NCBI GenBank assembly: GCA_964368135.1
Contig: CAYIZI010000001.1
Location: forward strand, 42,926 to 106,925
Direction: 5' to 3'
Length of the DNA: 64,000 bases
Source of the DNA: an uncultured Candidatus Saccharibacteria bacterium
GTDB lineage: Bacteria > Patescibacteriota > Minisyncoccia > 2-02-FULL-40-12
The position numbers and the translations under genes are program-made. The first letter of the stretch is position 1, and every line of letters begins with the position of its first letter. Of this stretch, positions 12,561 to 51,047 are shown one piece after another. Below the pieces are notes generated by a model. It saw nothing but the letters and a program-made list of their open reading frames with translations, made no database searches and was not told the origin of the DNA.

Positions 12561-12950
12561 TTAAAAACTGATCGCTATCCTCAAATTATGAGTTCCGGCA
12601 ATGGTGTGGGCAACGGTTATGGCAACAGGCAACAGATACCACAGTTTGTGGTCTCTTTTCTTCATTTCATAGCTAGCATAGAACACCCCGGCGTCGACAG
12701 ATCCTTGAACCACATAGAGCCACGGCTTCCCTGCTTCTACAAAAGGTCTCATCAAGGGATTTAGCTCTCGGCCATTCTCATGCCTGCTAAAGGCAAAATA
12801 GGTGCTCTCCACGTCATAAATTGTGGAGCCGATCATAAGGGAATTCACGGTCCAGAATTTACTGTCGGCCACTTTTTCTTGCGTCTGGGCAAATGCCATA
12901 GAGCCGATCAGTAGTAAAAAAATGCTCAAAATCAGTGTTTTCTTCGGCAT
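12561..12950 (-). CDS. Hypothetical exported/membrane protein
   Basis: 129-aa ORF with a signal peptide (LILSIFLLLIGSMAFAQT) and an ELNPLMR motif. Confidence 0.45.
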   Translation of the reverse strand: MPKKTLILSIFLLLIGSMAFAQTQEKVADSKFWTVNSLMIGSTIYDVESTYFAFSRHENGRELNPLMRPFVEAGKPWLYVVQGSVDAGVFYASYEMKKRDHKLWYLLPVAITVAHTIAGTHNLRIAISF

Positions 12951-13006
12951 TTCCTTCCGCCTTTCTTTTTAAACTGCTAATATATATTATACCACTAAAC
13001 GCCAAA

Positions 13007-32249: not shown

Positions 32250-32261
32250 TATTTGAAAATA

Positions 32262-33482: not shown

Positions 33483-33523
33483 TCTTTAATTATTATATAG
33501 AGTATTGAAAAAAACCGCCAAAC

Positions 33524-34328: not shown

Positions 34329-35579
34329 TTAGTGTCTAAAACTGAAAATCATCTTAATAAATGAAAGTAAGTAATAGACAAAATTTCCCCCTTGTTTAAC
34401 AAGAGTTATCTCAACTTGCTGGTTTTGAGTCGCTACGTTTAAAACCTCGTCCAAGTAGCCTTCAGCAGAAACGTTTAACTGAAGGAGGCTGTCATTTTTC
34501 AGATAAGGAAGCTCAAAATAACCGTTGCTTCTGGTTGTCGCGGACCTGTAATTATTTTTAACAATGGCTCCGGCAATGGGCCTATCCAGCCTATCTTTAA
34601 CAAAACCGGAAATAAGTAAAGGTTTATAAAAAGACTTTATGACTTCAACTGCCGGGGCAGGCATTCCTTTTTCATTCCACAACTGGGTTGAACCTCCGAT
34701 ATTAGTCCAATAGTTTATGCCTTTTAATTCTTCAATTTTTACTAACTCTTCCAGGGCGCTTTCTATCCAAGCCGCCTGGCCAGCTTTAGAAAGCCGGCCG
34801 TGGATATCCGGAATCGGAGCCCCGAACTCGCCCAAAACAACTTCTCCTCCGCTTATCTTGGCAAAATTTTTGATATCGCTGACGAGTTTCTCCACGGTTC
34901 TTACATAGTGGTCAATAGTAACTGCGCCGCCAAGGTTTTCAGTCGTGCTTTTATTCATAACCAACCTGGCAACATCTCCGTTCATTGAAAAATAGCTGGC
35001 TTTGACATCCTTATCTATTTTTTCAAAGGCGGCTTGGACTTTGTTGTACTCGTTGATCAAAAACTGCCTGTGGCCTGAAACATCGCCGTTATGCCTTGGG
35101 TCGCCCGGCCCGCCGTTCTCGCATTCAGGACAAGCGGTAAATATGTCGCCGTCTTCAAATAAGTTTTCGTTGTTCAATATAAACTTTTCGGTCAAAGCAA
35201 TATGGTTAGCCCTTGATATAATAGGATAATCAAACCAACCTTCCCAGCCTGACCAGTTACCCCTGAACCAAACATTAAGGTTATATTTTCTCGCCGCCGC
35301 CACCCACCGCCTAAGCATCGGCAGAAACTCCGCGTCATAAGGCGTGCCGACGGCCACATGGGTGGCGCCGGTGCCAGCGATAGCTTTTATTTGTTGGTCT
35401 ATTACCGCGTCAAAAGAACGGACATTAAGTTTTTCTCTGGCCAAATCTCTTGAATACTTCATTGTGTCTATGGATTGGACTTCCCAGAAAGTTGTCCTGC
35501 TCTCTTCCTGCGCATTTGAAATAGAAAAAACCGTAAATAGATAGATGATAAAAACAAAAATAAACGATTTGATTTTCAT
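34329..35579 (-). CDS. Secreted protein, TIM-barrel glycosidase-like core plus C-terminal CarboxypepD_reg-like beta-sandwich
   Basis: Signal peptide. C-terminal ISGFVKDRLDRPIAGAIVKNNYRSATTRSNGYFEL is typical of the carboxypeptidase-regulatory fold. The core family is not identified. Confidence 0.4.
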   Translation of the reverse strand: MKIKSFIFVFIIYLFTVFSISNAQEESRTTFWEVQSIDTMKYSRDLAREKLNVRSFDAVIDQQIKAIAGTGATHVAVGTPYDAEFLPMLRRWVAAARKYNLNVWFRGNWSGWEGWFDYPIISRANHIALTEKFILNNENLFEDGDIFTACPECENGGPGDPRHNGDVSGHRQFLINEYNKVQAAFEKIDKDVKASYFSMNGDVARLVMNKSTTENLGGAVTIDHYVRTVEKLVSDIKNFAKISGGEVVLGEFGAPIPDIHGRLSKAGQAAWIESALEELVKIEELKGINYWTNIGGSTQLWNEKGMPAPAVEVIKSFYKPLLISGFVKDRLDRPIAGAIVKNNYRSATTRSNGYFELPYLKNDSLLQLNVSAEGYLDEVLNVATQNQQVEITLVKQGGNFVYYLLSFIKMIFSFRH

Positions 35580-35580
35580 A

Positions 35581-37206
35581 TTAATCTTGGTTTTCCAAAA
35601 TTGGCTCGGTATTCAAAATATCCAAATACTCATCCCTTAATTGGTAAATATCGGCAAACGGATAAGAATCAACTAAATCGTATCTTTCAAATCCGGGCGT
35701 TCTTGAAACAAAACTCCATACCGAATCATTATCATCATGAGTCCGCATCACTATCCATCTTGCCCAATGGTCAGGCAGAGTTGTCGCCTCTTTCCAATAA
35801 TCGCCTGTTCCTTCATGGATGAATTTTTTCATCGGCATGCCGGACGAGAATATGATGGCGTCATGCGAAGCGGCGGATATTAATACAAATCCATCTTTAC
35901 CAGCGGCGTTTTGAGCCAGCCAGCCGCTTACTTCGGCGACGTTCTTCTGGCTTGAACCGACTCTGGCATCATCTATAGTAACCGCATCACCGCTTGAAAA
36001 CTGGAAAAAGAGAACAAAAAGAATCAATCCGATGATGACCGGCCTTAATTTTGAAACATAATGAATAAGATATCCGACAAATATCGCGATTGTCGGCATC
36101 AGCATTACTCCGTATCGGGCGTTAAACCAGGTGTCTCCTGATAAACCCTGAATAAATAATACCGAATGGCCAAGATAAAGAGCTAATATATTGAAGAAAA
36201 GGGGGGCCAACAAAACAAAAGTGGCAAAACGCACGCCTCGTCTTATATTCCCTGAAAACCAAAGAGCGACCGCCCCAACAAGACCCATAAGCGCTAAAAA
36301 CGCATTGGAATTATATGCCAAAGCGTAGAAATAGACTTTTAATGAAAAAAACCAATCCCCTTTTGTTGAAAGAACTCCGGCCGCTTCAAGCTGGGTCTGC
36401 TGGGTTCTGGCCGAATAAGGCCCGAAGGCAAAGTAAAGAGGATCGCCGAATATCAAAAGATTCCATAAAAACCACAATACTATGCCAAGCCCGGCCAGAG
36501 TAATGAATAAAATAAGCTTGCCCTCGGCCTGCTTATAGCCGTTTTTCTTCCATACGTAAAAAACAATCATCATTGAGGCTAAAACTAAAAGGAGCCAGCC
36601 GTCATACCTGACCAAGGTTGAAAGCATTATCCAAAAAGCTGACTTGACCAAGTCTACAACCTTGTCATCTTTGAACCACAGCATCAGATAATACGCACCC
36701 GCGGTCATAGCGGCGACAAGCGTTAATTCAGTCATGGCCGTTGACTGAAGATAAAGAACATTCAAATTTGAAGCAAATATCCCCACCCCGATTAATCTGC
36801 CGGTCATTTTAACTCCTATTTTTTCTAAGAACTTATAGATTATCAACCCGGTCAAAACAAAACCAAACATTGACCAGATCGTGCCGGCTAAGCCGGAATG
36901 CCACATAAAATCATTCCAGATTGTCAGGACCATAAGAAGGTGGGTAAGCGGCAGCCAGACGCTTCCCAACTGGGCAAACCCCGGCTTTAATCCCTCAACG
37001 ACCCGGCGGCCAATATCCAAGTGAGAACGGGCATCGTTATAAGCCAAGCTAAGCCCGTTCTGGAAATAAAACATGAAACTTAACACCGAGATAACTGATA
37101 GTATCGCCGCCACAATGGCAAAACCGTTTCTTTCAAAGAAAACTCCGACTCTATTTAGAGCATCGCTGCTTATATTGATTTTAATTACGCCCTTACTTTT
37201 GTTCAT
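35581..37206 (-). CDS. Polytopic GT-C-type glycosyltransferase-like membrane protein (ArnT/PMT-like)
   Basis: 541 aa, more than 10 TM helices, early loop YNDARSHLDIGRRV, and a soluble C-terminal domain. Confidence 0.45.
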   Translation of the reverse strand: MNKSKGVIKINISSDALNRVGVFFERNGFAIVAAILSVISVLSFMFYFQNGLSLAYNDARSHLDIGRRVVEGLKPGFAQLGSVWLPLTHLLMVLTIWNDFMWHSGLAGTIWSMFGFVLTGLIIYKFLEKIGVKMTGRLIGVGIFASNLNVLYLQSTAMTELTLVAAMTAGAYYLMLWFKDDKVVDLVKSAFWIMLSTLVRYDGWLLLVLASMMIVFYVWKKNGYKQAEGKLILFITLAGLGIVLWFLWNLLIFGDPLYFAFGPYSARTQQTQLEAAGVLSTKGDWFFSLKVYFYALAYNSNAFLALMGLVGAVALWFSGNIRRGVRFATFVLLAPLFFNILALYLGHSVLFIQGLSGDTWFNARYGVMLMPTIAIFVGYLIHYVSKLRPVIIGLILFVLFFQFSSGDAVTIDDARVGSSQKNVAEVSGWLAQNAAGKDGFVLISAASHDAIIFSSGMPMKKFIHEGTGDYWKEATTLPDHWARWIVMRTHDDNDSVWSFVSRTPGFERYDLVDSYPFADIYQLRDEYLDILNTEPILENQD

Positions 37207-38764
37207 TTTTTAAGAAAAATAAACTAACCATTAATGATAAAGTCACGGCTATTACTAAAGCTGTCATCATCTGATGATACTCTTGAGCGGTTAGGTATTG
37301 GCTGGCATATCTTTGGAATATAAACGACTTGGATTTATTCTTTTTCAATAAATCAAAATTTCTCTCATAAGTGAACTTTTCTTCTTTTCCTGACACCTCT
37401 TCAAGAGAAAGGACCTGCGCTTGCGGAGGATTAGTATCAGAAGTTATTGCTCCAAGAACATTAACCCAAACTGAATAGCTTACTAAAACAATAAATATTA
37501 TGCCGAATAAATAATTTTTCCTGAATTTAGTAAGAGCGAGTGAAAGGCCTATCCCTCCCAAGGCATAAGACGGAATCAGATATCTTGAACCAAATGCCCA
37601 CCCACCCCAAGGATCTCCCCAAAGAGAATAAAGAATTATATTAAATCCAATAGTTGCCAAAATTAAATTAGCGGCGGATCTATTTAACTTATACAAATAA
37701 GCAAAGCCCAAAATGCTTAAAAGAATAACCGGCGTGAACCAGACAATTCCCCTATCCGGACTTATGAAGTGGATATAAAATCCGTTAAGTAAATTCCTGG
37801 TTTTGAAAAATCCGACTGCTGTTTTCTCTTTATGGTAAGTTTTCTGTAGATTTAATAACTTGCTTATTTCTGATTGGGTTGGTAAACCTTTTTCATCTAT
37901 GGCCTCGACTGATTGAAGCGTACCGGGCAACTGGAATGGGTTGCCGGTAGAAGCCTGGTTAAACCATAGAAATAAAACGATGGGGGGGATAACGGCAAGT
38001 AGGGTTAAAAACCCGAGTATGTTGAAATTAATCTTTAATTTGAATTTTTCTTTTTCAATCCAGATTATTCTGGCCAAGGCAAAAACTCCAAGCGGAATCA
38101 TAAAAAATATGTTCGGGTTGTCCACCACGACCGAAAAGGCGATTAAAAACCATATCAAAGCCACTGACCAAAGATTATTCCAGCGGATAAGCGCATAAAT
38201 ACCCAATAGAATCAAAAAAGTTGATATATGATGCTGGTATAAAGTGGCGGCATAAGCAAAAGCCGGCGAAGCAAAAGCAAAAACAAGAGCCCCGATACTG
38301 GCCGCCAAAGGATTAGACCCTAACCTTATCGCTATCAACCTCACAAAGATTATATTCAAAAGAGCGAATAAAGCTGCGGTTGAAAATGCTCCCACTTGTG
38401 ATAATCCAAACTCTCTTCCTATCACGTAACCAGGTATAGCCAAAAAAGAAACACCCGGATTAAAAAGAGAAACATAACCGCCATTAACATAAGCAACATC
38501 TGGGGTAGTGAATTTGGCTAATGGCACTGAAAACTGAAAAGACTTATCCTCAACTAAAGAATAAGTCAAAGCAAATCTGCCCCTTTCCGGAGATAATTCA
38601 AAAGGCGCGCTTTCTGTAGGTTCATTAGGCTTCCACTGAGAAGTATTTAAGGCATCTTTGTTTGGATTTCCGGGAATGCCGCGCAAACCAAGAATTAAGA
38701 TAGCGGCGCAAAATAGTATAAACAATATGGCCGGAATTAATTGTAATATTTTAATTTTATCCAT
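37193..38764 (-). CDS. Polytopic GT-C-type glycosyltransferase-like membrane protein (ArnT/PMT-like)
   Basis: 523 aa, more than 10 TM helices, first loop FELSPERGRFALTYSLVEDKSF. Overlaps both neighbouring genes. Confidence 0.45.
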   Translation of the reverse strand: MDKIKILQLIPAILFILFCAAILILGLRGIPGNPNKDALNTSQWKPNEPTESAPFELSPERGRFALTYSLVEDKSFQFSVPLAKFTTPDVAYVNGGYVSLFNPGVSFLAIPGYVIGREFGLSQVGAFSTAALFALLNIIFVRLIAIRLGSNPLAASIGALVFAFASPAFAYAATLYQHHISTFLILLGIYALIRWNNLWSVALIWFLIAFSVVVDNPNIFFMIPLGVFALARIIWIEKEKFKLKINFNILGFLTLLAVIPPIVLFLWFNQASTGNPFQLPGTLQSVEAIDEKGLPTQSEISKLLNLQKTYHKEKTAVGFFKTRNLLNGFYIHFISPDRGIVWFTPVILLSILGFAYLYKLNRSAANLILATIGFNIILYSLWGDPWGGWAFGSRYLIPSYALGGIGLSLALTKFRKNYLFGIIFIVLVSYSVWVNVLGAITSDTNPPQAQVLSLEEVSGKEEKFTYERNFDLLKKNKSKSFIFQRYASQYLTAQEYHQMMTALVIAVTLSLMVSLFFLKNEQK

Positions 38765-40010
38765 TATATTGGTGATTTATCCTGCTATACGACTGAATAC
38801 CTATATCCTTTGAACTATTAGGGTTTTTGACTATCTGTTTATATAAACTATTCATACTATCGGCAACTTCCCTCCAAGAATTTCCAAGACTAAAGTTCAC
38901 GCAGTTTTTTTGCATATCTTTTATAAATTTGGAGCCATTATTTTTAAGGACAAAATCTATTTTCTTAGCTAAGGCTTTGTGATCACGAATCCCGATGCAG
39001 TATCCGTTTATTCCATTCTTAATCAAATATGTCAGGGCTTCATTATTAGAAACAATACATATTAAACCTTGACTTAAACCTTCATTTATAACATTTGGAT
39101 AAGCTTCTTTAATAGACATCAGAATCATCATCCCGGCCTTTTTAATTATATAGTACTTATCTATGCCTTTTATCAGCCCAGTAAATACCACTCTGTCTTG
39201 TAAACCTAATTTTTCTATAAGCTCCTGGAGGTATTTTTTATAAGAATTATCATCTTCTGGCCCTACAATCACAAACTTAAGATTTTTAGGCAGTATGGCC
39301 AGGGCTTTAATAGCGGTTTCGTAATTTTTAATTGGGTGGATCCTGCCTACCTGAATTATGTAATTACCTAATCCCTCAACTATTTTCTTTATTTCGGGAC
39401 TGGCCTTAGTTTCAACATCTTCAAAGGCCTCGCTTTCAATCCCGTTCTCAATAACCACAACAAGTTCTGGTTTTACTCCTTTTTCAATTATTTCAGATTT
39501 TTCTAATTCAGAAACAGCCCTGACCGCATCAACAACAAGATTTATAAAAAGTATTCCCGCTGTATAATGGTAGACTATTTTTATTATCTTCTGGATGGGA
39601 TTGAATATGGACCAGTCTGGAGTAAAGCCGCCGTGAGGAGTTAAAACCAAAGCAAAATTCTTTTTGCCTAAGATTTTTAGGAACAAAGCTTTAAACAAAA
39701 TGTGGAAGTGCGGAAAGATATTAAAATTGTGAAGGCAAACAAGGTTTGTATTTTTCCAGTTTATACTTGGCAAATAGCCATACCATTTAAAAGGATATCT
39801 TCTAATCTTGATGCTTCTAACTTCGTCTGTGTTAGGCAGATAATTTTTATTCGTAAACGTGTCTTTAGAAGTGTGGATAGTAACATCCCATCCTTTTTCG
39901 GCAAGAACGCTGTAAGTCTCCAAAATATTTGTCTCGGCGCCGGCTACAACCGGATAGAAGTACTTTTGTACTATATCAATATGACCAAGTTTTTCTGATT
40001 TTATATTCAT
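38757..40010 (-). CDS. Glycosyltransferase family 4 (GT-B)
   Basis: N-terminal YFYPVVAGAETNI. The C-terminal half with the E...E region (KEAYPNVINEGLSQGLICIV) fits GT4. Confidence 0.65.
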   Translation of the reverse strand: MNIKSEKLGHIDIVQKYFYPVVAGAETNILETYSVLAEKGWDVTIHTSKDTFTNKNYLPNTDEVRSIKIRRYPFKWYGYLPSINWKNTNLVCLHNFNIFPHFHILFKALFLKILGKKNFALVLTPHGGFTPDWSIFNPIQKIIKIVYHYTAGILFINLVVDAVRAVSELEKSEIIEKGVKPELVVVIENGIESEAFEDVETKASPEIKKIVEGLGNYIIQVGRIHPIKNYETAIKALAILPKNLKFVIVGPEDDNSYKKYLQELIEKLGLQDRVVFTGLIKGIDKYYIIKKAGMMILMSIKEAYPNVINEGLSQGLICIVSNNEALTYLIKNGINGYCIGIRDHKALAKKIDFVLKNNGSKFIKDMQKNCVNFSLGNSWREVADSMNSLYKQIVKNPNSSKDIGIQSYSRINHQYNG

Positions 40011-40019
40011 GATAATTTT

Positions 40020-40961
40020 TTATTCAGTTTGTTTATAAATTAATGTTTTGGATGACCTGTGAGGCATAAATAGAGGATCAAATTTTGAAACTTTTAATGT
40101 CGTAATCCTATTGATACATACCTCCAATAAATACAAGACGATCAAAACAGGATTCCTGAAAAAGCTTGATAAAACAGACTTAACGACCAACCCGAACGGC
40201 GGGCTATATTCCTTTTTAATCCAGGCTGGTTCAAAATACTTACAAAATGATCTTCGGCCGCTTATGAATTTAGTGCACTGCTTTTTCCTATCTTTGAAAT
40301 TGGTAACATTCCTAAAATAAAATCTTGCGCGATGTTGTTTAACCATTTTTAAATTCAACTGTTTTAACCTGAAATAAGTGTAAACGTCTTCTGGAAGGTC
40401 TAATGGCCATGTGAGATTTTGGGTAAAGTTCCTTGATAAAATTTTGGCTGAATTGCAACAATAAATATTATCGCCTCCTCGCCACTCACTGAACATCTTA
40501 CTTTTCATACGACTACCTTGAGTCATTACCTTTTCAAATAAACCAACGGGTTTAACCGGCTCTGCATTGCCGACTGCAATGCCCAGATTTTTAATACTTG
40601 ATTTCTTAAATGGATGCACCAACTCATCAATAACTCCTGTGTCGGCGGGCAAGGCGTCGCCTTCCACTATCATTAATAAGTCGCCGGAATATTTTTTAAG
40701 CATCAAGTTCTGCATAGCTTGCTGGCCTGATCTTTTTTTAAAGATAAACATTTTAATTATCTTAAATCTATTTGCCAAAGATTTAACAATATCTACAGAA
40801 TTATCTGTGGTGCCATCAAAGAAAACCATAATTTCTTTAAGCATATAATTATCCTGTTCCTGTTTAACCAGCCTCAAAATAAGCTCTTTAATATTGGCTT
40901 CCTCGTTGTAAACCGGAATGCCTATAGAAACCGTCAATTTTCTTGTTTTTTTCTGGTTCAT
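40020..40961 (-). CDS. Glycosyltransferase family 2
   Basis: VSIGIPVYNEEANI start, DGTTDNS, VEGDALP (DxD-like). Confidence 0.7.
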   Translation of the reverse strand: MNQKKTRKLTVSIGIPVYNEEANIKELILRLVKQEQDNYMLKEIMVFFDGTTDNSVDIVKSLANRFKIIKMFIFKKRSGQQAMQNLMLKKYSGDLLMIVEGDALPADTGVIDELVHPFKKSSIKNLGIAVGNAEPVKPVGLFEKVMTQGSRMKSKMFSEWRGGDNIYCCNSAKILSRNFTQNLTWPLDLPEDVYTYFRLKQLNLKMVKQHRARFYFRNVTNFKDRKKQCTKFISGRRSFCKYFEPAWIKKEYSPPFGLVVKSVLSSFFRNPVLIVLYLLEVCINRITTLKVSKFDPLFMPHRSSKTLIYKQTE

Positions 40962-40962
40962 T

Positions 40963-41871
40963 TTATTTATTTATTTGCTTAGTCGACGCATCAACATCCC
41001 AAACAGGATCAATAACTTTCTTTTCCGGTTGTTTATTTAATCTGGTATAAATAAACACACCCATATAAGAAACCAAAGATATAGGATGCCTAATAAATTC
41101 CTCTAAAAAGCTTAAAACTAATGCCTTGATTGGGATTTTATATTCGGCTGCTACTTGCTGACCAAAATAAGACACCATTTCTTTTAGAGCATATTGGTAG
41201 CGGCTGCTTGGACCCACCTGGTCGCTAATTTTTTGGGGACAGCGGATTTTAACAATAGCTTTGTCTGCTAAGGCAAACCTTCCGCCTAATCTCCTGTTTT
41301 CCAAGTACATATACATATCGCCGGTTACAATATTTTCGCGAAGATTAAACCTTTTAAAATGCTCGGTTCTAAATGCAAGACAACGACCGCTGGCCAATAG
41401 ATGGTTGCTCTTGCCTTTTAATTTTAAGACCATGTGGTCAATAACCCTGACCATACTTGCCATTGCCGACTCAAAAAAAGTTTCAGGCGGCAAAGGCAAA
41501 ACTCTTGCCCCAACCATGGTTGCTTCTGGATTACTCTGAAAAACAGACAGTATTTCTTTTAAAGTCCCGGGTTCAAAGGTTATATCGTCTTGAGTGGAAA
41601 CATAAATATCGCTATTGCATACATCAACCGTCTGCTTAATTTTTTTAAGCTGGCTCCCCTCTTTTTCATTCCAAATCAATTCAACTCCCAATTTGGAAAG
41701 CTCGGATTTAATTTCAGGCGATATCGGCGTGCGGTCAGCGCAAATTATAAATCTGAAGTTGCCCACTCCTTTTGAATTTCTAAGACCTTTGGCGGTGTCC
41801 GAAAGAGATTCGCCTCCGTAGCAAGTGGGTATAGCGACGGTTAATGTCAATTGTTTTTCTTTGTTATCCAT
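40963..41871 (-). CDS. Glycosyltransferase, GT-A fold (GT2-like)
   Basis: LTVAIPTCYGGESL start and a QDDITF acidic motif. Weaker match than the neighbouring GT2. Confidence 0.5.
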   Translation of the reverse strand: MDNKEKQLTLTVAIPTCYGGESLSDTAKGLRNSKGVGNFRFIICADRTPISPEIKSELSKLGVELIWNEKEGSQLKKIKQTVDVCNSDIYVSTQDDITFEPGTLKEILSVFQSNPEATMVGARVLPLPPETFFESAMASMVRVIDHMVLKLKGKSNHLLASGRCLAFRTEHFKRFNLRENIVTGDMYMYLENRRLGGRFALADKAIVKIRCPQKISDQVGPSSRYQYALKEMVSYFGQQVAAEYKIPIKALVLSFLEEFIRHPISLVSYMGVFIYTRLNKQPEKKVIDPVWDVDASTKQINK

Positions 41872-43150: not shown

Positions 43151-43159
43151 ATTTATTTA

Positions 43160-43690
43160 TTAGCTTTTAAAATCCGGCCAAGATGAATCTTTTTCAGAAA
43201 CATGCTCTACCGCTACCGGCCAATCAAAATTAAATTTCTTATCATTAAATCTAATTCCTTTTTCACATTCGGCCGTAAACGGCGCCGTATATAAATTTAT
43301 AAATTCAACATCGTCTCCCAGGGTTAAAAATCCGTGGGCAACGCCTTTAGGAACATACAGTGATTTCATATCTGAATCGCTAAGCTTAAAACCCTGCCAC
43401 TTCAGGTATGTCGGAGAGTTAGGTCTTACATCAACAATAACTTCATAGATAGAACCCCTGGTAACTCTGGTCAACTGGGCCATCTCTTGAGGTTTAATCT
43501 GATAATGGATTCCTCTGATTGTGCCTTTATTTTTTGTAAAAGAAATATAGCCCTGAACAATTTCATTGCTTATATTTACTTTTTTAAACTCATCCTTGCC
43601 GAATATGCGGGTTAAATTGCCTCGGTCATCCTCTCGCTTGGCAAGTTGAATTAAATACGAACCTTCAATGTTTGTTTTTATAAATTCCAT
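43160..43690 (-). CDS. NDP-4-keto-6-deoxyhexose 3,5-epimerase (RmlC-like cupin)
   Basis: REDDRGNLTRIF, GTIRGIHYQ, LYVPKGVAHGF. Confidence 0.75.
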   Translation of the reverse strand: MEFIKTNIEGSYLIQLAKREDDRGNLTRIFGKDEFKKVNISNEIVQGYISFTKNKGTIRGIHYQIKPQEMAQLTRVTRGSIYEVIVDVRPNSPTYLKWQGFKLSDSDMKSLYVPKGVAHGFLTLGDDVEFINLYTAPFTAECEKGIRFNDKKFNFDWPVAVEHVSEKDSSWPDFKS

Positions 43691-43691
43691 A

Positions 43692-44723
43692 TTATTTTTT
43701 AACTTTCCAATTAAGCATATTGTCCAACTGGCCAGTTTCCATCAGGTATTTTATTTCTTTTAATCTGGTGAATGGATTCGACTCAAATACCTCCTTGGTC
43801 ATGGAAATTTTTTCAAATATTTGTTTTAACTGCTCGGCCCCGTCTTTAATGCTCCACTGGCATTTAAATCCGGGCAGTTTAGAATATATTTTGTCAAAAT
43901 TTACTCTGTAACTTCTGTTGTCGCTGCCGGCCTGGTCCATTGTAATTTTGCAATTGGGGAATACGTCAGATATTACTTTGGCAATATCTCTGACCTGATA
44001 ATTCCCTTTGTTGCTCCCAACATTGAATACTTGATTATGGACGACTTCTTTAGGCGCTTTAGCGGCGCAAATCATTGCCTGGCAAATATCAAGAATATGA
44101 ACCAATGGCCTCCAGGGAGTACCGTCGCTATTTAGTTTTATCTCTTTATCAACCCAGGCCAAGCCACTAAGGTTATTCAATACGATATCAAATCTCATTC
44201 TTGGAGAGGGTCCGTAAGCCGTGGCATTTCTTAAAAATACGGGCGAAAAATTATCATCGGCCAGTTTAAATAATTCTTTTTCCACCAATATTTTGCATTT
44301 AGCATAAGCTGTCTGGGGATTGACGGCAGACTCTTCAGTCACCAAATCATCTTTGGCAATGCCGTAAACGCTGCACGAAGACGAATATATAAACCTTTTG
44401 ACACCGGCTTTCTTGCATTTTTCAGCCAGTGAAACCGAGCCATGATAGTTTATGGAATAGGTTAAATCAGGGTTAATTTCGCCGAGAGGATCATTAGACA
44501 GCTCGGCCAGATGAATAACAACGTCAAATCCTCTTAAATCATCTTCGGTCACATCACGGGTATCTTTGCGCAGAATTTCCGGCTGTTTGCCAAAACCGTT
44601 ATAAAGCTGGCCGGACTTATAAAATCCGGCATCTAAACCAACCACCTCATATCCTTTTTCGATCATTTTAGGAGCTAAGACAGAACCGATATATCCGTCT
44701 GCTCCGGTTATTAATATTTTCAT
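43692..44723 (-). CDS. NAD-dependent sugar epimerase/dehydratase (extended SDR)
   Basis: The internal ATG at 44723 gives MKILITGADGYIGS. SSCSVYG and YAKCK (YxxxK). The upstream gene stops 2 nt before it. Confidence 0.8.
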   Translation of the reverse strand: MKILITGADGYIGSVLAPKMIEKGYEVVGLDAGFYKSGQLYNGFGKQPEILRKDTRDVTEDDLRGFDVVIHLAELSNDPLGEINPDLTYSINYHGSVSLAEKCKKAGVKRFIYSSSCSVYGIAKDDLVTEESAVNPQTAYAKCKILVEKELFKLADDNFSPVFLRNATAYGPSPRMRFDIVLNNLSGLAWVDKEIKLNSDGTPWRPLVHILDICQAMICAAKAPKEVVHNQVFNVGSNKGNYQVRDIAKVISDVFPNCKITMDQAGSDNRSYRVNFDKIYSKLPGFKCQWSIKDGAEQLKQIFEKISMTKEVFESNPFTRLKEIKYLMETGQLDNMLNWKVKK

Positions 44724-44725
44724 AA

Positions 44726-45448
44726 TTACCAAACCTTCCAAAGGGCCTGGCCTTTTTGCCAAAGCTCCTCCAGAATATTTTTATCTCTTAGCGTATCCAG
44801 ACACATCCAAAATCCTTTGTGGCGATACGCGGCTAATTTACCGTCTTCGACCAACTGCTTCATTGGTTCTTGTTCAAAAACAGTTTCATCTCCTTGGATG
44901 TAATCAATTACTTTCGGGTCAAGAATAAAAAATCCGCCGTTTATCCACGAACCCCCATTTTTTGGTTTTTCCCTGAAACTTGATACCAATCCATTCTTGC
45001 CCTCAATTTTTAAAATACCGAACCTCCCTTCCGGCTGAACTGCTGTTACGGTGGCTGGTAAATTATGGCCATTATGGAATTCTAAAAGTTTTTTTAAATC
45101 AACATCGGCAACACCGTCGCCATAAGTAAGGAAAAACTGGCCATTACCAAGATAATCTTTTATTCTCTTTATCCTGCCGCCGGTCATGGTTTCCTGTCCG
45201 GTATCAACAATGGTTATATTCCAATTTTCATTATCAATCCCTTTGCTAAAATACTCCTTTATCATGTCGCCTTTGTAGCCGGCACAAATGATAAAGTCGT
45301 TAAAACCCTGGGTTGAAAATATTTTCATAACATGCCAAAGCATCGGTTTGCCGCCGATTTCAACCATTGGCTTAGGCCTGACCGAAGTTTCCTCGGCTAT
45401 CCTGGTGCCATAACCGCCTGCTAAAATTACCACTTTCATATCATTCAT
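44726..45448 (-). CDS. rfbF: Glucose-1-phosphate cytidylyltransferase
   Basis: MKVVILAGGYGTRIAEETSVRPKPMVEIGGKPMLWHVMKIFS..GFNDFIICAGYKG matches the RfbF N-terminus well. Confidence 0.8.
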   Translation of the reverse strand: MNDMKVVILAGGYGTRIAEETSVRPKPMVEIGGKPMLWHVMKIFSTQGFNDFIICAGYKGDMIKEYFSKGIDNENWNITIVDTGQETMTGGRIKRIKDYLGNGQFFLTYGDGVADVDLKKLLEFHNGHNLPATVTAVQPEGRFGILKIEGKNGLVSSFREKPKNGGSWINGGFFILDPKVIDYIQGDETVFEQEPMKQLVEDGKLAAYRHKGFWMCLDTLRDKNILEELWQKGQALWKVW

Positions 45449-45452
45449 ATAG

Positions 45453-46364
45453 TTAATTATTCTTACAAAAATCTTTGACGTAATTTATGTCTTCCTGGGA
45501 CAGCTTCGGCCAATACGAACTCACCAGCCACTTGCCGCCTAACATCACTGAATTACTGTTAAAAGCTTCCTGCGTCTTCAGATTGGACAGACCAATGGCG
45601 TGACCAAAACCGTGAATCATTTCTCTTATCAAGGCGGATTCTATTAATTTCCCTTCATCTGCTAAACTGCCTAAATAAACATTACTGTTGGCTGCATAGT
45701 CAAATAAGGCCGTAAAAATATTCAGCATAAAATGATCCACGGTTCCATTGCTATATATCTTTTGATACGAAACATCAGTATAATCATAATCTTCCCCATT
45801 CTTAAATTTAAAGGCCGGGTCAAGAATAAAGTTAACCGTATTTACGGTTCCTTGGTAATTATTGAATAAATCAATACCCAAAGCATCTTCCCACTGTTTT
45901 TCGGCATAACCGAGAAGCTCGTTAAGCCGCTGGCGGCTATAACCCAGTTCAAATAATCTCACATCAACATTCCCTAATTTGTAGGTTAGTTGAATTGAAC
46001 AATGAGCCGGAGGCGGCAGAGGCGTAGGCGTGGGAGTTGGAGTTGGGGTCGGAGTTGGAGTTGGGGTCGGTTTCGGAACTGGTTTTGGTTTTTGCGTAGA
46101 ACTTGGAGTAGAAACCGGCCCAATCGGCGATTCAGACGGTTCTGACGTAGCCGATGGACTTAAAATAGGAGTCGGCGTCGGAGTTGATTCTTCAAATAAT
46201 TGGGCAATGAGGGCCGCCGGGTTATTATCAGTATTCATTATCTTACTTAAACCAAAAGTAAATCCGACTGAAATAATCAATGCAAAAGCAGGAACTAATA
46301 CAGACAGTGGGATGAAACCTGACTTTATGCTTATTATTTTTTTGTTTTTGTTGGTTTTATTCAT
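45453..46364 (-). CDS. Secreted protein with (PT)n linker and degenerate metzincin-like motif
   Basis: Signal anchor, PKPVPKPTPTPTPTPTPTPTPTPLPPP, and C-terminal HGFGHAIGLSN (HExxHxxGxxH with E to G and the last H to N). Confidence 0.5.
   Translation of the reverse strand: MNKTNKNKKIISIKSGFIPLSVLVPAFALIISVGFTFGLSKIMNTDNNPAALIAQLFEESTPTPTPILSPSATSEPSESPIGPVSTPSSTQKPKPVPKPTPTPTPTPTPTPTPTPLPPPAHCSIQLTYKLGNVDVRLFELGYSRQRLNELLGYAEKQWEDALGIDLFNNYQGTVNTVNFILDPAFKFKNGEDYDYTDVSYQKIYSNGTVDHFMLNIFTALFDYAANSNVYLGSLADEGKLIESALIREMIHGFGHAIGLSNLKTQEAFNSNSVMLGGKWLVSSYWPKLSQEDINYVKDFCKNN
46033..46068. repeat. Perfect 18-bp tandem duplication inside the (PT)n coding tract
   Basis: ggagttggagttggggtc occurs twice (46033-50 and 46051-68), embedded in a longer ggNgtN periodic tract. 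Confidence 0.9.
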
Positions 46365-46370
46365 ATTTTT

Positions 46371-49300
46371 TTACTTACTGATTATTGATAAAAACGCCTT
46401 GCTTGTTTTACTCCAGTCAAAATTACTGGCCCATTTTACTGCTTCCTGGCTCATCCGGTCGCGGAGATCCTTGTCTCGAATTATCGTTAAGATACTCTCC
46501 GCGAATGCATCGCTATTGCCGTAAGAAACAAGGCGGCCAGTTTCCATATTTTTCACAGAATCCCTTAAGCCCGGTACGTCAGAAGCCACTATCGGGGTGC
46601 CGCAAGCATTGGCTTCAATCGTGGTAATGCCCCACCCTTCCATAAACGAAGGATTTACAAATACCCAGGCTTTTTGAAAAAGTTCTATTTTCTCTTTTTC
46701 AGAAACCTTTCCTCTAAATACTACTTTGCCGTTAAGATTAAGTTCAGAGGCTAATCTTTTTAACGAATTTTCTTCTTCGCCGCTGCCGACAATGACCAAC
46801 CGGGCATCATCAACTTGTCTTATAACCTTTTCAAAAGCTCTTACTAAAACATCAACCGACTTATAGGCTTTAAGCCTTCCCAAATAAAGAATAGTCGGTT
46901 CCGGACTCTTTCTCCCAAGAGTTAAATTTTTAGAATTGACTCCGGGATGGACTATTTCAATTCCTTTCTTAGTTCCAAGGCCAAAACTCTGAATATCTTT
47001 TTTGCTTGATTCCGAAACCGTAATAAACTTTACATTCCGGTAGACTATGGGCATCAAATCCTTCTCTAAAAATATTGCCAGCTTTGCTAAGGGTTTAGGC
47101 AAAGAATGCCTGAAGACTTCCTGATGGATATGATGGATAAGACAATAAATCGGCTTCCTTGAATAGATGGGCGTAAAAAAAGGAATGCCGTTATGACAAT
47201 CAACTATGATGTCATATTTGCCTCTGAATTGGGTCAGGTAGTAAATAAAAGCCCAGAGGTAAACAAAGTAAAACCCGCCTCTTCTTATGATTTCAACCCC
47301 ATCTATAATTTCTCTTCTCTTTGAATAACTGTCATTGCCGCAAAAAACAGTGACCTGGTGTCCATCCTTGACCCACTGTTTGGCGATTTCGTGGACATAA
47401 AGTTCTGCTCCGCCACCATATATATGCCTTGTGTCTCTCCAGTTAAATATAAGAATCCTCTTGCCGAGCTTCGCCATCGGAGCCTCGGTTTCAATAGGTC
47501 TAAACGCATCTTTCAAATCAATAATGCCCCTCCAGACAAACTTAAGCCTGCCCTCAAGTACGTGGAATAAATAAACCAGGCCCAACCCAAAGATGCTGGC
47601 CCATAAAATAACATTGACTATCTCTTCGACGCTGCCGTGATTTAGGATTATGCCGATAGACATAAACAATGAAGCAGTCATTGAAATAATCGGGAATATA
47701 AATTGCCTTTTAGCCAAATGATAGACGACTATAGAATTTGAAATCGTGAAAACAGTAAGCGCGAGAGTGTAAATATTAAGATAAGGCAGAATGGCCAGCG
47801 TCTTGGAGCCAAAAAGTATCGGCACGGTTAAATTGCCCAGAGGGCCCAAAAAAATAAACCCGGCTAATGACAAAAGGACGGTTGAACCAACCAGCAGCTC
47901 AAATGTCTTTTTAGTATTTCTCTTTAATCCCTCGTCTCGGCCAATCAAAGTAATCATAAATATATTGGGCAGAGAGCCGAGAAAATATATCATCTTGCCG
48001 ACAAGCGATATTAGAGTGTACTCGCCGGCCAAACGCGGCGATAAAAAGTGTTTGACTAAAATAATGTCAATGCTTAAAAATATCGTCGCCGACATTAAAG
48101 TAAGTATTGAGGCGTAGAAAAACCTGCCCGGAAACTTATGGTTTTTAGTCTGAATAAAATCTTCAGAATGCCTTGAAACAGCCAAAACAGAAGCCATTGA
48201 AGCAACCGCTATGGATATCGGAATTGAAAGATAAACTAAATGATTTAACCCATACCAGGCGAAAAGAGCCGCCGCAATAAACTTACTTACTGATTCAAAA
48301 AGAATAACGAAAGCAACACTGGTAAAGTAAAGATTGCCATTAAGAAACCCCCTGTTTGCCGACGCAATCACTCCCAAAGTCAGAACCGGAGTGAACATAA
48401 AAAGGATGGACTGGCTGCTTATGTTAAAGAAATTAGAAAGGAATGAAACTGAAACTATCCACATTACCGATATGCCTAAGGCAATAGGAATTGCTTTGTT
48501 CAAAGTTGATTTGAGAAACGCAAGCGCCGACCCCTCACCCTTTTCAACGGCCAGATGAGCAGTCTTATGGTTTACCGTTGAGGAAACCGCGCCCATAAAT
48601 ATCGCCGCTACTGACCATAAAGTATTAACCAGTATCACTAGACTAAGTTCTTCAAAAGACAAAACCCTTCCCAGGAAAGCGTTAAAAAGAAAATTAAGGA
48701 AATTGGCGAACATCATCGCCGCAATCATAAGCGCCGCTCCCGAAAGAGCATTTTCGGTCAGCGATAACGGCAAAAATTTATTAGTGGTTTTTTTCAGCCA
48801 AGAATCTTTCTTTATAAAATTAAGAGTCAATTCAGGTTTCGGGGCCGGTCCCGATTTTATCGTCCCTAAAACAGGTAAGGGTTTTAATTTCTTTAAATGC
48901 AGGCCGTGCTTGGTCTTTTCCCAGAAATGCGGCTTAATGAAAAGCTGGTAAGTTGCCATTACCGCGGCAATACTCATAAAGAACCAATAGAAAGGTATTA
49001 AAAAGACATATTTTATTATTGGCCAGTGGCCCCTTTTGGCACAGCCGATCATGTAATAGTAAAAATAGAGAAAATTCCCGAAGACCAGAGAAAAAACGGC
49101 GATATAAAAGACCGGGGTCGGATATATTGATTCTATGGTCGGACCGACAACGGAACGCAGGGCGAAATAAGAGATCGTCATAAACCACAAAATTGGATTT
49201 ATAAGCATAAAGACAATTTTGCCGCCGATGTTAAGCTGGAAAAGAAAAGTATGGATGCCGCTTTTTTTCAAAAATTCCATCGGCTTTCTCATATGAACCA

Positions 49301-51047
49301 GATATGTCTGCATATAGCCCTTAATCCACCTTGACCTCTGCCTTATCCAGTTCCAAACCTGACTATTTGCTTCTTCAAGAGTTATTGAATCAATAATCGC
49401 CGTGTTGAAACCCTGTTTAAATAACCGCACCCCCAAGTCGGCGTCTTCGGTAACGTTGAAGGGATCCCAACCCTTAAGATTCCTTAAGTCGGCGGTCCGG
49501 AAATGGTTGCTGGTGCCGCCAAGAGGAATTGAAGTATTAATTGACTGAAGACCCGGCAGAATGATTTCAAACCACAACGAGTACTCGGCCGTAAAAAGCC
49601 GGGTCAAAAGATTTTGATTGGTGTTATAATAATTGAGTTTTGCCTGAAGACATTTAACTTTTTCTGGCACTCTTTGAAAAGCCAAATAAGCTTTCTTAAG
49701 CTGCTGGGGTTCGGGCATATCTTCGGCGTCGTAAACGACAAGATACTCACCCTTGGCTGAATTAAGACCATAATTGCAGGCCTTGGGCTTGGTCTTAGGC
49801 AAAGAGTGAGGAACGATTACTATCCTTACGTAGCTTGGCAAATCTATTGACCTGGCAGTATCTATTGTCTCTAAGTCGTTTTCTTCTAAAAGCAGCTGGA
49901 CATCCAATTTATCCTTAGGCCACTCCAATTTGCTTATTGAATTTAAAAATTTTGGAAGAACCGCTGATTCCCGATAAAGCGGGCAGAGAATCGCATAAAC
50001 CGGCAGAGAACTTTCGTCTATCCGGGAAAGTTCCTCATCAGTAAAACTAAGTTCCGGAGGATTATGCAGACTTTTTGTGATAAGGAATAAATTAAACAAA
50101 ACGTCAAAAAAGTATAGAGAGCTTAAAACAGCCATTAAAGCTATGGCCGTATAGAGCGGGAAAAATAAAAATCCGGCAACAGCCAAAATAACGGATAGAA
50201 ATATTAAAAATTTCTGGCTGGCGGTAAATGTGATTAGGGCCGAGGTTTCACTGTCAAGATTAGAATGAGTAATGAACCTTCTGCCTTTATGGGCCATTCC
50301 GGCGCCGATCATACTTGATTCGTCTTGCGGCGGTATTTGAATCGGCTTTTTCTTTTTTAACTTGTTGGCCAACGCGTTAGTGCCTATTTCCCAACTGGCT
50401 TTTATGACATTGATTTTTGATTCACCGGAATGCCTCTTTTCAAAATCTATATTAACGGTGGCTATTTCATGGCCGGCGTATCTGGCGTTAACCAAGAATT
50501 CCAGATCAAAGGTCCACTGGGACGGATTAACTGCTATTTCCTTGGTTATCTGTTTTTTAAAAACTTTTAACCCTGACTGGACATCGCACTTAAGCCCGTG
50601 AAGAATCCGGCCAAAAACAAAATTAAAACCTTTGCTGGCCAGCTTTCTTAAGGGGCTTATGCCTTTATAACGTCTATTGGCCACAACTACGCCGGCGCCA
50701 TCTCTAATTTTTCTCACCATTTCCGGTATCGCTTCCGGCGGGTACTGCAGGTCAGCGTCAATCATCCCGACAGTGTCATACTTGGCATAATCAAAACCCT
50801 CAAGAATAGAAAAGGCCTTACCCTTTTTGCCTTTCTTCAAATGACAACTAATTGGATATTCGTCGGCCAGATTATTGGCAATCTTAACCGTATTATCGGT
50901 TGAGTGGTCATCTATTGTGACTATTTCATACTCAATACCGCCTTTTTTTAAAGCATTATCAATCCTCTTGACTAACTTCTGGATATTTCCTTCTTCATTA
51001 AAAGTAGGAATAATTATTGATACTTTTTCAGTGTTTTTGGCCTCCAT
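46371..51047 (-). CDS. 1558-aa multidomain glycan-assembly protein: GT2 (polyprenyl-phosphate-sugar-synthase-like) + processive GT2 + MOP/Wzx-like flippase + GT4
   Basis: aa 8-230: IIIPTFNEE, DDHSTDNT, DADLQYPP. aa 347-585: YDAED, TEDADL, QRSRW. aa ~765-1165: about 12 TM helices with a polysaccharide-biosynthesis/flippase-like N-terminus. aa 1196-1558: EGWGITTIEANACGTPIVASDVPG. Confidence 0.8.
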   Translation of the reverse strand: MEAKNTEKVSIIIPTFNEEGNIQKLVKRIDNALKKGGIEYEIVTIDDHSTDNTVKIANNLADEYPISCHLKKGKKGKAFSILEGFDYAKYDTVGMIDADLQYPPEAIPEMVRKIRDGAGVVVANRRYKGISPLRKLASKGFNFVFGRILHGLKCDVQSGLKVFKKQITKEIAVNPSQWTFDLEFLVNARYAGHEIATVNIDFEKRHSGESKINVIKASWEIGTNALANKLKKKKPIQIPPQDESSMIGAGMAHKGRRFITHSNLDSETSALITFTASQKFLIFLSVILAVAGFLFFPLYTAIALMAVLSSLYFFDVLFNLFLITKSLHNPPELSFTDEELSRIDESSLPVYAILCPLYRESAVLPKFLNSISKLEWPKDKLDVQLLLEENDLETIDTARSIDLPSYVRIVIVPHSLPKTKPKACNYGLNSAKGEYLVVYDAEDMPEPQQLKKAYLAFQRVPEKVKCLQAKLNYYNTNQNLLTRLFTAEYSLWFEIILPGLQSINTSIPLGGTSNHFRTADLRNLKGWDPFNVTEDADLGVRLFKQGFNTAIIDSITLEEANSQVWNWIRQRSRWIKGYMQTYLVHMRKPMEFLKKSGIHTFLFQLNIGGKIVFMLINPILWFMTISYFALRSVVGPTIESIYPTPVFYIAVFSLVFGNFLYFYYYMIGCAKRGHWPIIKYVFLIPFYWFFMSIAAVMATYQLFIKPHFWEKTKHGLHLKKLKPLPVLGTIKSGPAPKPELTLNFIKKDSWLKKTTNKFLPLSLTENALSGAALMIAAMMFANFLNFLFNAFLGRVLSFEELSLVILVNTLWSVAAIFMGAVSSTVNHKTAHLAVEKGEGSALAFLKSTLNKAIPIALGISVMWIVSVSFLSNFFNISSQSILFMFTPVLTLGVIASANRGFLNGNLYFTSVAFVILFESVSKFIAAALFAWYGLNHLVYLSIPISIAVASMASVLAVSRHSEDFIQTKNHKFPGRFFYASILTLMSATIFLSIDIILVKHFLSPRLAGEYTLISLVGKMIYFLGSLPNIFMITLIGRDEGLKRNTKKTFELLVGSTVLLSLAGFIFLGPLGNLTVPILFGSKTLAILPYLNIYTLALTVFTISNSIVVYHLAKRQFIFPIISMTASLFMSIGIILNHGSVEEIVNVILWASIFGLGLVYLFHVLEGRLKFVWRGIIDLKDAFRPIETEAPMAKLGKRILIFNWRDTRHIYGGGAELYVHEIAKQWVKDGHQVTVFCGNDSYSKRREIIDGVEIIRRGGFYFVYLWAFIYYLTQFRGKYDIIVDCHNGIPFFTPIYSRKPIYCLIHHIHQEVFRHSLPKPLAKLAIFLEKDLMPIVYRNVKFITVSESSKKDIQSFGLGTKKGIEIVHPGVNSKNLTLGRKSPEPTILYLGRLKAYKSVDVLVRAFEKVIRQVDDARLVIVGSGEEENSLKRLASELNLNGKVVFRGKVSEKEKIELFQKAWVFVNPSFMEGWGITTIEANACGTPIVASDVPGLRDSVKNMETGRLVSYGNSDAFAESILTIIRDKDLRDRMSQEAVKWASNFDWSKTSKAFLSIISK

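Follow-up and report, generated by a model that had tools for sequence, protein, structure and literature searches.

A conserved Patescibacteria locus that may assemble a strain-variable cell-surface glycopolymer

Layout of the cluster and the four-module protein

Patescibacteria live on other cells, and next to nothing is known of the chemistry of their surface. The present report concerns a gene cluster at positions 34329-51047, on the minus strand, of a 64,000-nucleotide stretch of DNA (the window) from an uncultured, ultra-small groundwater Candidatus Saccharibacteria bacterium (assembly GCA_964368135.1, contig CAYIZI010000001.1). Twelve consecutive open reading frames (ORFs) are present, encoding proteins of 416, 541, 523, 417, 313, 302, 428, 176, 356, 240, 303 and 1558 amino acids (aa). 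Neighbouring genes either overlap by 8-37 nt or are separated by gaps of 1-9 nt, the only larger gaps being found at the cluster ends (99 nt upstream and 49 nt downstream), and the plus-strand ORFs of the interval are 80-164 aa long, each contained within a minus-strand gene. A first-pass annotation had described twelve consecutive, often overlapping envelope-glycosylation genes, a description confirmed by the ORF list and junction lengths, with nearly all gene calls holding. In this bacterium the cluster represents a conserved locus of the Microgenomates and of some Parcubacteria. From the protein families encoded, we lean, with modest confidence, towards a locus that would assemble a strain-variable cell-surface glycopolymer through a multi-component, lipid-carrier-dependent route. 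The features are as follows (GT, glycosyltransferase; GH, glycoside hydrolase; TM, transmembrane; SDR, short-chain dehydrogenase/reductase; CDP, cytidine diphosphate; E, expectation value).

34329..35579, minus: 416-aa secreted protein with a signal peptide, a clan-GH-A-like hydrolase core (~300 residues), a CarboxypepD_reg domain (PF13620 at 323-393) and a hydrophobic tail
35581..37206, minus: 541-aa polytopic glycosyltransferase family of GT-C fold, unannotated and at the edge of PMT_2; conserved core enzyme
37193..38764, minus: 523-aa polytopic glycosyltransferase family of GT-C fold, unannotated; proposed transferase/polymerase for the variable lipid-linked glycan
38757..40010, minus: 417-aa GT4 glycosyltransferase of the variable cassette (PF00534, 1.3e-29; Agl16-like at 174 bits, under cutoff)
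40020..40961, minus: 313-aa GT2 glycosyltransferase with a C-terminal hydrophobic helix, TM 271-289 (PF00535, 1.3e-17)
40963..41871, minus: 302-aa GT2 glycosyltransferase of the variable cassette (PF13641, 1.7e-10)
41864..43150, minus: 428-aa DRL-family (DXR-II/DLO) NAD(P) oxidoreductase with a C-terminal SAF domain (PF21135, 1.6e-46, plus SAF)
43160..43690, minus: 176-aa RmlC-like cupin sugar-nucleotide 3,5-epimerase (PF00908, 7.4e-53)
43692..44762, minus: 356-aa extended SDR of epimerase/oxidase type (PF01370; best PDB match 6vo6, E 7.8e-34)
44726..45448, minus: 240-aa glucose-1-phosphate cytidylyltransferase, which makes CDP-glucose (TIGR02623, 357.6 bits against a cutoff of 300.25)
45453..46364, minus: 303-aa membrane-anchored protein (TM 17-35) with a Ser/Thr/Pro-rich linker and a C-terminal domain; lineage-specific, possible O-glycosylation substrate
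46371..47462, minus: module 4 of the 1558-aa protein (aa 1196-1558), GT4 retaining-type glycosyltransferase (PF00534, 1.5e-45, plus PF13439)
47463..48827, minus: module 3 (aa 741-1195), divergent MOP/Wzx-like flippase domain, ~11-12 TM helices by hydropathy
48828..50057, minus: module 2 (aa 331-740), membrane-embedded cellulose-synthase-like GT2 (PF13641 plus PF13632)
50058..51047, minus: module 1 (aa 1-330), polyprenyl-phosphate glycosyltransferase-like GT2 with two TM helices (PF00535, E 7.5e-29)

The 1558-aa protein, which had been read as a four-module enzyme, does combine a polyprenyl-phosphate sugar synthase-like GT2, a cellulose-synthase-like GT2, a membrane block and a GT4, and Pfam likewise recovers the single GT4 and the two GT2/GT-A enzymes named elsewhere in the cluster. 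The four-module architecture is conserved, with 120 cluster representatives among the matches listed, all of 1,389-1,730 aa; in most of these the alignment covers 98-100% of the query (51-86% identity), and in about 11 the best segment covers only about 46%. The analysis thus accounts for a recurrent 1,550-aa protein that is annotated merely as 'glycosyltransferase'.

The predicted architecture of module 1 is that of a polyprenyl-phosphate sugar synthase, comprising a GT2 domain of GT-A type, a DxD motif, a juxtamembrane region, a C-terminal TM hairpin (helices at 280-298 and 305-323) and polyisoprenyl-glycosyltransferase (PI-GT) relatives. Its top seven PDB matches are DPMS, ArnC and GtrB enzymes, the best being the dolichol-P-mannose synthase of P. 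furiosus (5mlz, E 1.5e-33), while the best NCBIfam matches, ArnC, PgfS and AglJ, are all under cutoff (ArnC, 97 against 529). A PF13506 (GT21) match has also been detected at aa 74-140. Residues D46 and D47 and the stretch D97-A-D99-LQYPPE are invariant, and the likely polyprenyl-phosphate-sugar synthase module of the first-pass annotation can accordingly be located here. In module 2, DAED (440-443), TED (533-535) and QRSRW (570-574) are invariant in 30 homologues and are followed by TM helices at ~607-699, motifs that, on sequence, represent the catalytic signature of cellulose-synthase-like enzymes. Compared with processive beta-glycan synthases (BcsA/PgaC/NodC), the predicted module possesses the motifs and TM helices but stays far under the curated NCBIfam cutoffs, both for CelA (2.8e-17; 62 bits against 699) and for PgaC (9e-14; 51 against 422).

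Module 3 has been characterised through its relatives. Among 30 full-length homologues (51-86% identity), which were partly picked because they carry a flippase-family mark, 10 match Polysacc_synt (PF01943, best 2.5e-9), 4 match MatE (PF01554) and 1 matches Polysacc_synt_3. Homologues and hydropathy together identify the module as a probable divergent MOP/Wzx-type flippase-like domain. Module 4 carries the glutamates of an EX7E motif, E1470 and E1478, both of which are invariant.

Conserved frame and variable cassette

Comparison with related genomes, which had been suggested as a means of defining a conserved core, was performed on 80 of 345 matching loci with a 541-family gene, each from a genome representative of its species, and their ORFs were searched with the window proteins. 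In these 80 species genomes of Microgenomates and Parcubacteria the order is kept as giant protein, variable GT/sugar-nucleotide cassette, 523, 541 and 416, which yields a frame consisting of the giant protein and the 523, 541 and 416 families. A 523-family gene lies immediately upstream of the 541 gene in 68 of the 70 loci with enough flank, a 416-family gene directly downstream in at least 52 of 71 (more if one inserted gene is allowed), and the giant protein within the 10-kb upstream flank in 37 of 47. The interval from the giant protein to the 523 gene holds one to six or more GT2/GT4 genes, a set that changes between loci, and the cytidylyltransferase-SDR-RmlC-DRL block is found in just ~5 of the 80 loci, although the 86%-identical relative L086 retains both this cassette and the PT-rich protein. 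The supercluster originally described is therefore real as a gene run but not indivisible, being a conserved frame around a variable cassette. Homologues have been named Patescibacteria, Woesebacteria, Gottesmanbacteria, Levybacteria, Moranbacteria and similar, and in one locus (L071, approximately 13400-19000) a second tandem copy is present downstream, consisting of a module-2-like GT2, a 541-family gene, a 416-family gene and another 541-family gene.

The same division is reflected in sequence identity and base composition. Median identity to the window proteins is highest for module 2 (68%), the most conserved part of the locus, followed by the 541-aa protein (63%), module 4 (54%), the 416-aa protein (52%), the 523-aa protein (47%), module 1 (46%) and the flippase module (37%), with the interior GTs at 29-35% (302-aa GT2, 35%). 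The lowest guanine-cytosine (GC) contents, 0.34-0.38 against 0.418 for the window, belong to the 523 gene (0.377) and the GT cassette (417-aa GT4, 0.343; 313-aa GT2, 0.352), and that of the RmlC-like gene is 0.371; O-antigen loci have comparable low-GC wzx/wzy/GT cores. A diversifying cassette set within fixed machinery is what O-antigen, capsule or pellicle loci display, and a fixed frame with a hypervariable centre, present in hundreds of species, makes the product an obvious candidate for a host-contact and phage-recognition molecule.

A chimeric assembly has been excluded as the source of this arrangement. Such an assembly had been named as a circumstance that would undo the original description; however, the same gene order recurs on independent contigs, and the core order in 80 species genomes. 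Public data contain identical copies of the 541-aa and 1558-aa proteins on a 164-kb contig, and the 541-aa protein is found, with identical gene order, on ENA contigs of 126,877 and 82,408 bp from two Hainich groundwater samples (0.1-um fraction). The shorter of these (L002, ERZ1292627) ends inside the 302-aa GT2 gene, at ~41.0 kb of the window, a break of the kind expected where strains differ and consistent with strain heterogeneity at that point.

It might be argued that no single pathway is encoded, and that small-genome packing has brought together a standard synthase-dependent exopolysaccharide gene, a cassette for sugar nucleotides and membrane proteins that have nothing to do with them. 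Most of the window is indeed minus-strand and tightly packed, promoter and terminator scans returned the same counts as shuffled sequence and were uninformative, and the CDP cassette and the PT-rich protein are lineage-specific. Mere adjacency is nonetheless contradicted by the synteny over 80 species and by natural fusions, five kinds of which connect modules 1 and 2, the 313-type GT2 and the 523-aa, 541-aa and 416-aa proteins. One protein fuses the 523 and 541 families (P0242; 47% and 58% identity), three join a 541-family enzyme to a 416-type domain (P0250, P0273 and P0389; E 1e-84 to 1e-90), four join module 2 to the 541 family (P0308, P0349, P0385 and P0386), one unites module 1, module 2 and the 541 family (P0303), and a 313-type GT2 is fused to a 523-family GT-C in P0155 and in locus L043. 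In addition, three 541-family proteins carry a GH5 domain in the same C-terminal place as the 416-type domain (P0251, P0286 and P0312), and among paralogous GT-C proteins GH113 domains also occur at this position. Given these fusions, the proteins are much likelier to share a pathway, and probably to form physical complexes, than to be adjacent by chance, and we regard chance adjacency as very improbable.

Within the variable part, the four-gene CDP-sugar module previously proposed turns out to be only partly canonical. The cytidylyltransferase scores over its curated cutoff and is shared with the canonical CDP-deoxyhexose pathway (RfbF, RfbG), but the 4,6-dehydratase of that pathway, with its T-D-E and YxxxK, has no counterpart here. 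The SDR was rejected as a CDP-glucose 4,6-dehydratase on the basis of 21 bits against 278 for TIGR02622 and of the reading 'SSSCSVYG ... YAKCK' in place of STDEVYG, with no T-D-E; its ORF probably starts at ATG 44723 rather than TTG 44762, and its closest solved relative, 6vo6, is presumably the C4-dehydrogenase Cj1427. The cupin falls just under the rmlC threshold (TIGR01221, 146.9 against 155.75). An RmlC-type epimerase requires a keto sugar, and the simplest interpretation is therefore a sequence of oxidation, epimerisation and reduction, in which a CDP-hexose would be formed with no 6-deoxygenation and the DRL-type enzyme would supply the second redox step. Such a scheme has been documented for Campylobacter heptoses (PMC10680097). 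The capsular heptose pathway of C. jejuni (C4-dehydrogenase Cj1427, C3/C5-epimerase and C4-reductase) resembles the cassette in its C4 oxidation without deoxygenation, its RmlC-like cupin and its reduction step, the SDR here being devoid of dehydratase residues. Unlike that pathway, the cassette would use CDP instead of guanosine diphosphate (GDP) and a hexose instead of a heptose, and the proposed reductase is of the DRL/DLO type with a SAF domain instead of an SDR.

The 428-aa protein has Brucella DRL as its best solved relative (3upl, E 1.3e-69) and belongs to a DXR-like family that includes two uncharacterised oxidoreductase clades, DLO1 and DLO2 (PMC3847144). Genes of this type are present in 20 of the 80 related glycan loci, often beside an RmlC-like gene and sometimes without other CDP-sugar genes; in L013, L019, L028, L050, L051 and L082 the DRL-type gene stands just after the 541-family gene. 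Such regular occurrence within glycan loci speaks for a sugar-related role, and the protein is proposed to be a sugar-nucleotide keto-reductase or dehydrogenase. The recurrence hints at a sugar-nucleotide function for a DLO clade or, alternatively, at the supply of the isoprenoid carrier lipid. The former would give one uncharacterised DXR-like oxidoreductase clade its first possible function.

The GT-C pair, the secreted protein and the acceptor

The 541-aa and 523-aa proteins matched no Pfam family, even at E 10, which places the 541-aa protein of the window outside the PMT_2/ArnT-PMT-like families (PF13231 or PF02366). Single-sequence and profile searches of the PDB with the 541, 523 and 416 families gave nothing significant, and structure comparison alone was successful. 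Structurally, the 541-aa protein is best matched by Pmt4, Pmt2, STT3B, PglB and AglB, the matches of the 523-aa protein comprise ALG12 (23.2), ArnT (20.9), STT3B and AftB, and matches of the two also include PimE, AftA/B/D and Emb. By fold, therefore, both are members of the polytopic GT-C superfamily, as had been supposed, and with a protein O-mannosyltransferase (PMT) homologue identified by Pfam elsewhere in the window the count of three GT-C enzymes stands. The 541 family yielded 1926 homologue matches, the best at 62-68% identity, and an exhaustive HMMER search (50% clustering) gave 2123 cluster representatives; the 523 family yielded 1129 matches at ~50-60% identity. All of these matches are unannotated, and a fold and a pathway context are now given to two large protein families. 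Among 41 diverse and distant 541-family members, 22 match PMT_2 (PF13231), with scores near the gathering threshold.

Residue D58 of the 541-aa protein, 10-12 residues past TM1, is invariant in 30 close and 41 distant (27-41% identical) relatives, and E56, E72 and D89 of the 523-aa protein are invariant in a long loop between TM1 and TM2. With topology predicted from hydropathy and the positive-inside rule, both proteins would thus carry conserved acidic residues in the first extracytoplasmic loop, as is characteristic of GT-C enzymes. Lipid-linked donors may be used; the locus also encodes a PI-GT-like module, of a type found elsewhere as a fusion with 541-family proteins. The two proteins were considered as recent paralogues and are not, as the hhalign comparison of the families gave a probability of 0.5%. 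An invariant F-x-x-R-Y motif with a conserved Trp before it, in a loop ahead of the last TM helices, is shared by both (541-aa protein, 361-366; 523-aa protein, 391-396) and may provide a phosphate-binding arginine of the donor site.

The 416-aa partner had been described as a secreted glycosidase-like protein, of which the secretion and the glycosidase likeness are retained, but no particular GH family can be assigned. Three of seven 416-family members match PF11790 (Glyco_hydro_cc, the clan GH-A 'glycosyl hydrolase catalytic core'; best 1.2e-6), and E113, E152, E154 and E251, the last within 'GEFG', are invariant. These matches and glutamates make it reasonable to call the protein glycosidase-like, and its family is probably related to the clan GH-A hydrolase core. 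In the profile search of the PDB, just GH2 beta-glucuronidases appeared (E 0.16), with 'GEFGA' aligned to their nucleophile motif. Assignment to GH5 was rejected, since hhalign against GH5-bearing paralogues gave 17% probability and an alignment out of register.

The (PT)n protein had likewise been taken to be secreted. A Ser/Thr/Pro linker of 60 residues has been confirmed in the 303-aa protein, the only such ORF of the window, but the protein is membrane-anchored (TM 17-35) and lineage-specific. A full-length homologue, 81% identical, occupies the same position in L086, and no homologue of the family was found in the 80 related loci, on which ground it was rejected as a conserved glycan acceptor. 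Its C-terminal domain has no Pfam match even at E 10. The domain contains 'MIHGFGHAIGL', a metzincin-like HExxHxxG in which Gly replaces the catalytic Glu; this Gly is kept in the L086 homologue, and the domain may therefore be a pseudo-protease or a binding domain.

These proteins raise the question of the acceptor, for which the first-pass annotation had allowed both proteins and wall polymers. One possibility is protein O-glycosylation, in which one or both GT-C enzymes would move a lipid-linked glycan to Ser/Thr-rich regions of secreted or membrane-anchored proteins, as PMT, streptococcal Pgf and TfpW-type pilin glycosylation do, with the in-cluster (PT)n protein, S-layer proteins, sortase substrates and type IV pilins as candidate acceptors. 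Protein glycosyltransferases do head the structural matches of the 541-aa protein, the closest relative retains the protein with the Ser/Thr/Pro linker, the window also contains a PMT homologue and a type IV pilus locus, and sortase and fn3 genes are found 3' of the locus in relatives; in streptococci, Ser/Thr-rich disordered regions of membrane-associated proteins are reported to be glycosylated (PMC12041528). Against this, none of the 80 related loci has the (PT)n protein, in contrast to the universal GT-C pair, and the fusions of 541-family enzymes to cellulose-synthase-like GT2 and to GH5, GH113 and GH-A-like domains suggest a polysaccharide substrate. O-glycosylation is accordingly regarded as unlikely.

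A second possibility is a membrane-anchored lipoglycan or glycolipid, resembling lipomannan/lipoarabinomannan (LM/LAM) or a glycosylated lipoteichoic acid, for which the GT4 and GT2 enzymes would glycosylate a membrane lipid and the GT-C enzymes would extend it outside, drawing on polyprenyl-phosphate sugars supplied by module 1. Module 4 and the 417-aa GT4 resemble MshA and PimA-type, glycolipid-forming GT4s, the structural matches to PimE, AftA/B/D and Emb and the GT21 match of module 1 would be in keeping with such a product, and the cluster contains no wall-ligase gene. However, nothing specific to a lipid acceptor has been encountered, the invariant TED and QxxRW of module 2 and its CelA/PgaC affinity fit a polymer synthase better, and a hydrolase-like partner is typical of secreted or wall polysaccharides, which leaves a lipoglycan decidedly improbable. 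As the fusions join synthase-like GT2 and hydrolase-like domains to the same enzymes, we favour a polysaccharide as the probable acceptor.

Proposed assembly route and neighbouring genes

From the observed gene content, folds, motifs, synteny and fusions, a division of labour can be proposed for a surface glycopolymer, together with its donors, acceptor, processivity and product. In a conserved arm, module 2 would polymerise, and probably export, a conserved beta-linked backbone, and the 541-aa GT-C together with the secreted GH-A-like 416-aa protein would decorate, attach or trim/transglycosylate that backbone outside the membrane. In a parallel, variable arm, module 1 would place a sugar on polyprenyl phosphate, and the soluble GT2/GT4 enzymes (417, 313 and 302 aa) and module 4 would extend the primed sugar. 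Among their donors would be a rare CDP-hexose, derived from CDP-glucose by the SDR, RmlC-like and DRL-type enzymes through oxidation, epimerisation and reduction. The Wzx-like module 3 would then flip the lipid-linked glycan, and the less conserved, low-GC 523-aa GT-C would transfer or polymerise it onto the backbone. The lipid-linked, extracytoplasmic glycosylation foreseen in the first-pass annotation is supported by this content, a sugar synthase, a flippase-like block and three GT-C enzymes each having been found.

Neither WecA/Bac_transf (PF00953, PF02397) nor a Wzy family has been found among the 12 genes, and a crude test for the motif DE[LIV]PQ in the window ORFs was negative. With no diphosphate-priming transferase present, the carrier linkage is probably a monophosphate, as in lactococcal Wps. 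The Wzx/Wzy pathway differs in having both a WecA/WbaP-type initiating phosphoglycosyl transferase and Wzy, so that the locus does not belong to the classical form of that pathway.

Several points weigh against a polysaccharide assembled in this manner. Every activity is assigned from family or fold, and the division into conserved backbone and variable side chain follows conservation and GC gradients alone. The nearest solved relative of module 2, 6yv7, is a weak match (E 0.004), and QxxRW-type GT2s are not always processive. Module 3 itself has no Pfam match, even at E 10, and no NCBIfam match, and the 416-aa protein's own sequence has no GH match, its first 320 residues being without a Pfam family even at E 10. 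Moreover, the cluster revealed neither an LCP-type ligase nor any obvious wall-anchoring enzyme.

In mechanism, the locus comes closest to the lactococcal/streptococcal multi-component transmembrane glycosylation system (WpsA-J, GacI-L), of which it is not a member. In Wps/Gac systems, a GT-A enzyme primes undecaprenyl phosphate (C55-P), cytoplasmic GTs extend the glycan, a Wzx-type flippase flips it and a GT-C polymerase and transferase finish the process, with the GT-C-fold WpsI and WpsJ polymerising the flipped C55-P-oligosaccharide and attaching it to rhamnan (PMC9574508). The locus can be likened to these systems in its logic, in that a GtrB/GacI-type GT-A would prime polyprenyl monophosphate, cytoplasmic GTs would extend the glycan and a putative Wzx-family flippase would translocate it. 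Two outside GT-C-fold enzymes, putatively a polymerase and a transferase onto a conserved backbone, and the separation into conserved and strain-variable halves are further likenesses. In contrast to Wps/Gac, the priming GT, synthase-like GT2, flippase-like domain and GT4 are here fused as one 1558-aa protein, no rhamnan/ABC-transporter arm is present and the backbone would come from a cellulose-synthase-like GT2, while the GT-C proteins belong to two unannotated families and a GH-A-like secreted protein is a fixed partner.

Other known systems are more distant. Three-component systems (GtrA/GtrB/GtrX, ArnC/ArnEF/ArnT and CsbB/GtcA/YfhO) add one sugar by means of a small GtrA or small multidrug resistance (SMR)-type flippase, whereas here a MOP-type block is accompanied by several elongating GTs, two GT-Cs and a synthase-like GT2. 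The BcsA/BcsZ cellulose and PgaC/PgaB poly-N-acetylglucosamine (PNAG) systems share with it a membrane GT2 bearing D, DxD, TED and QxxRW and a secreted glycoside-hydrolase-like partner. They differ in that module 2 lies far under their equivalog cutoffs, no BcsB, PilZ or deacetylase partner occurs here, and GT-C fusion is not a feature of those systems. A literature search found nothing on such a locus in Patescibacteria or Microgenomates. The pathway logic is already known and no new principle is involved; what appears to be new, none of it having turned up in the literature searched, is the four-module megaprotein, the fixed pair of unannotated GT-C families, the fixed GH-A-like partner and the distribution across Patescibacteria.

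A bolder extension can be put forward only tentatively, and we consider it doubtful. The locus would be the Patescibacteria counterpart of an O-antigen/pellicle 'serotype' locus, building the major strain-variable surface glycopolymer of these episymbionts by polyprenyl-monophosphate priming. The two hitherto unrecognised GT-C families would form an outside polymerase/ligase pair in physical association with a processive synthase and with a remodelling enzyme of GH-A type, and a DXR-like enzyme of a DLO clade would act as the sugar-nucleotide reductase that yields a rare CDP-L-hexose. Were this the case, the variable cassette would set host attachment and phage susceptibility.

The genes directly 3' of the cluster (31791-34279, minus) encode a classical SDR of 251 aa, a putative glycoside hydrolase of 406 aa with DUF4015, and a Gmad2 Ig-like protein. 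These were rejected as cluster members, and the boundary at 34329 stands, because relatives do not keep them beside the core. DUF4015 is by name a PelA-hydrolase-like family, and the protein could be a second glycan-processing enzyme of this strain.

The third GT-C enzyme of the window lies well apart from the cluster and on the opposite strand.

12935..14404, plus: bacterial-type protein O-mannosyltransferase (PMT/GT39) homologue (PF02366, 1e-53, 182.8 bits; PF16192, 1.2e-43, 149.4 bits)

Its PMT and PMT_4TMC domains score over their cutoffs, while the NCBIfam PMT equivalog is not reached (69.7 bits against 800), and it is adjoined by a DUF763 protein (14902-16050, plus; E 7e-123). On the other side, 1.6-7.5 kb upstream of the cluster, a type IV pilus set is encoded on the minus strand (52703-58503), including a pilin with an N-methylation motif (52703-53179), a T2SSF protein (56208-57278) and a T2SSE ATPase (57271-58503).

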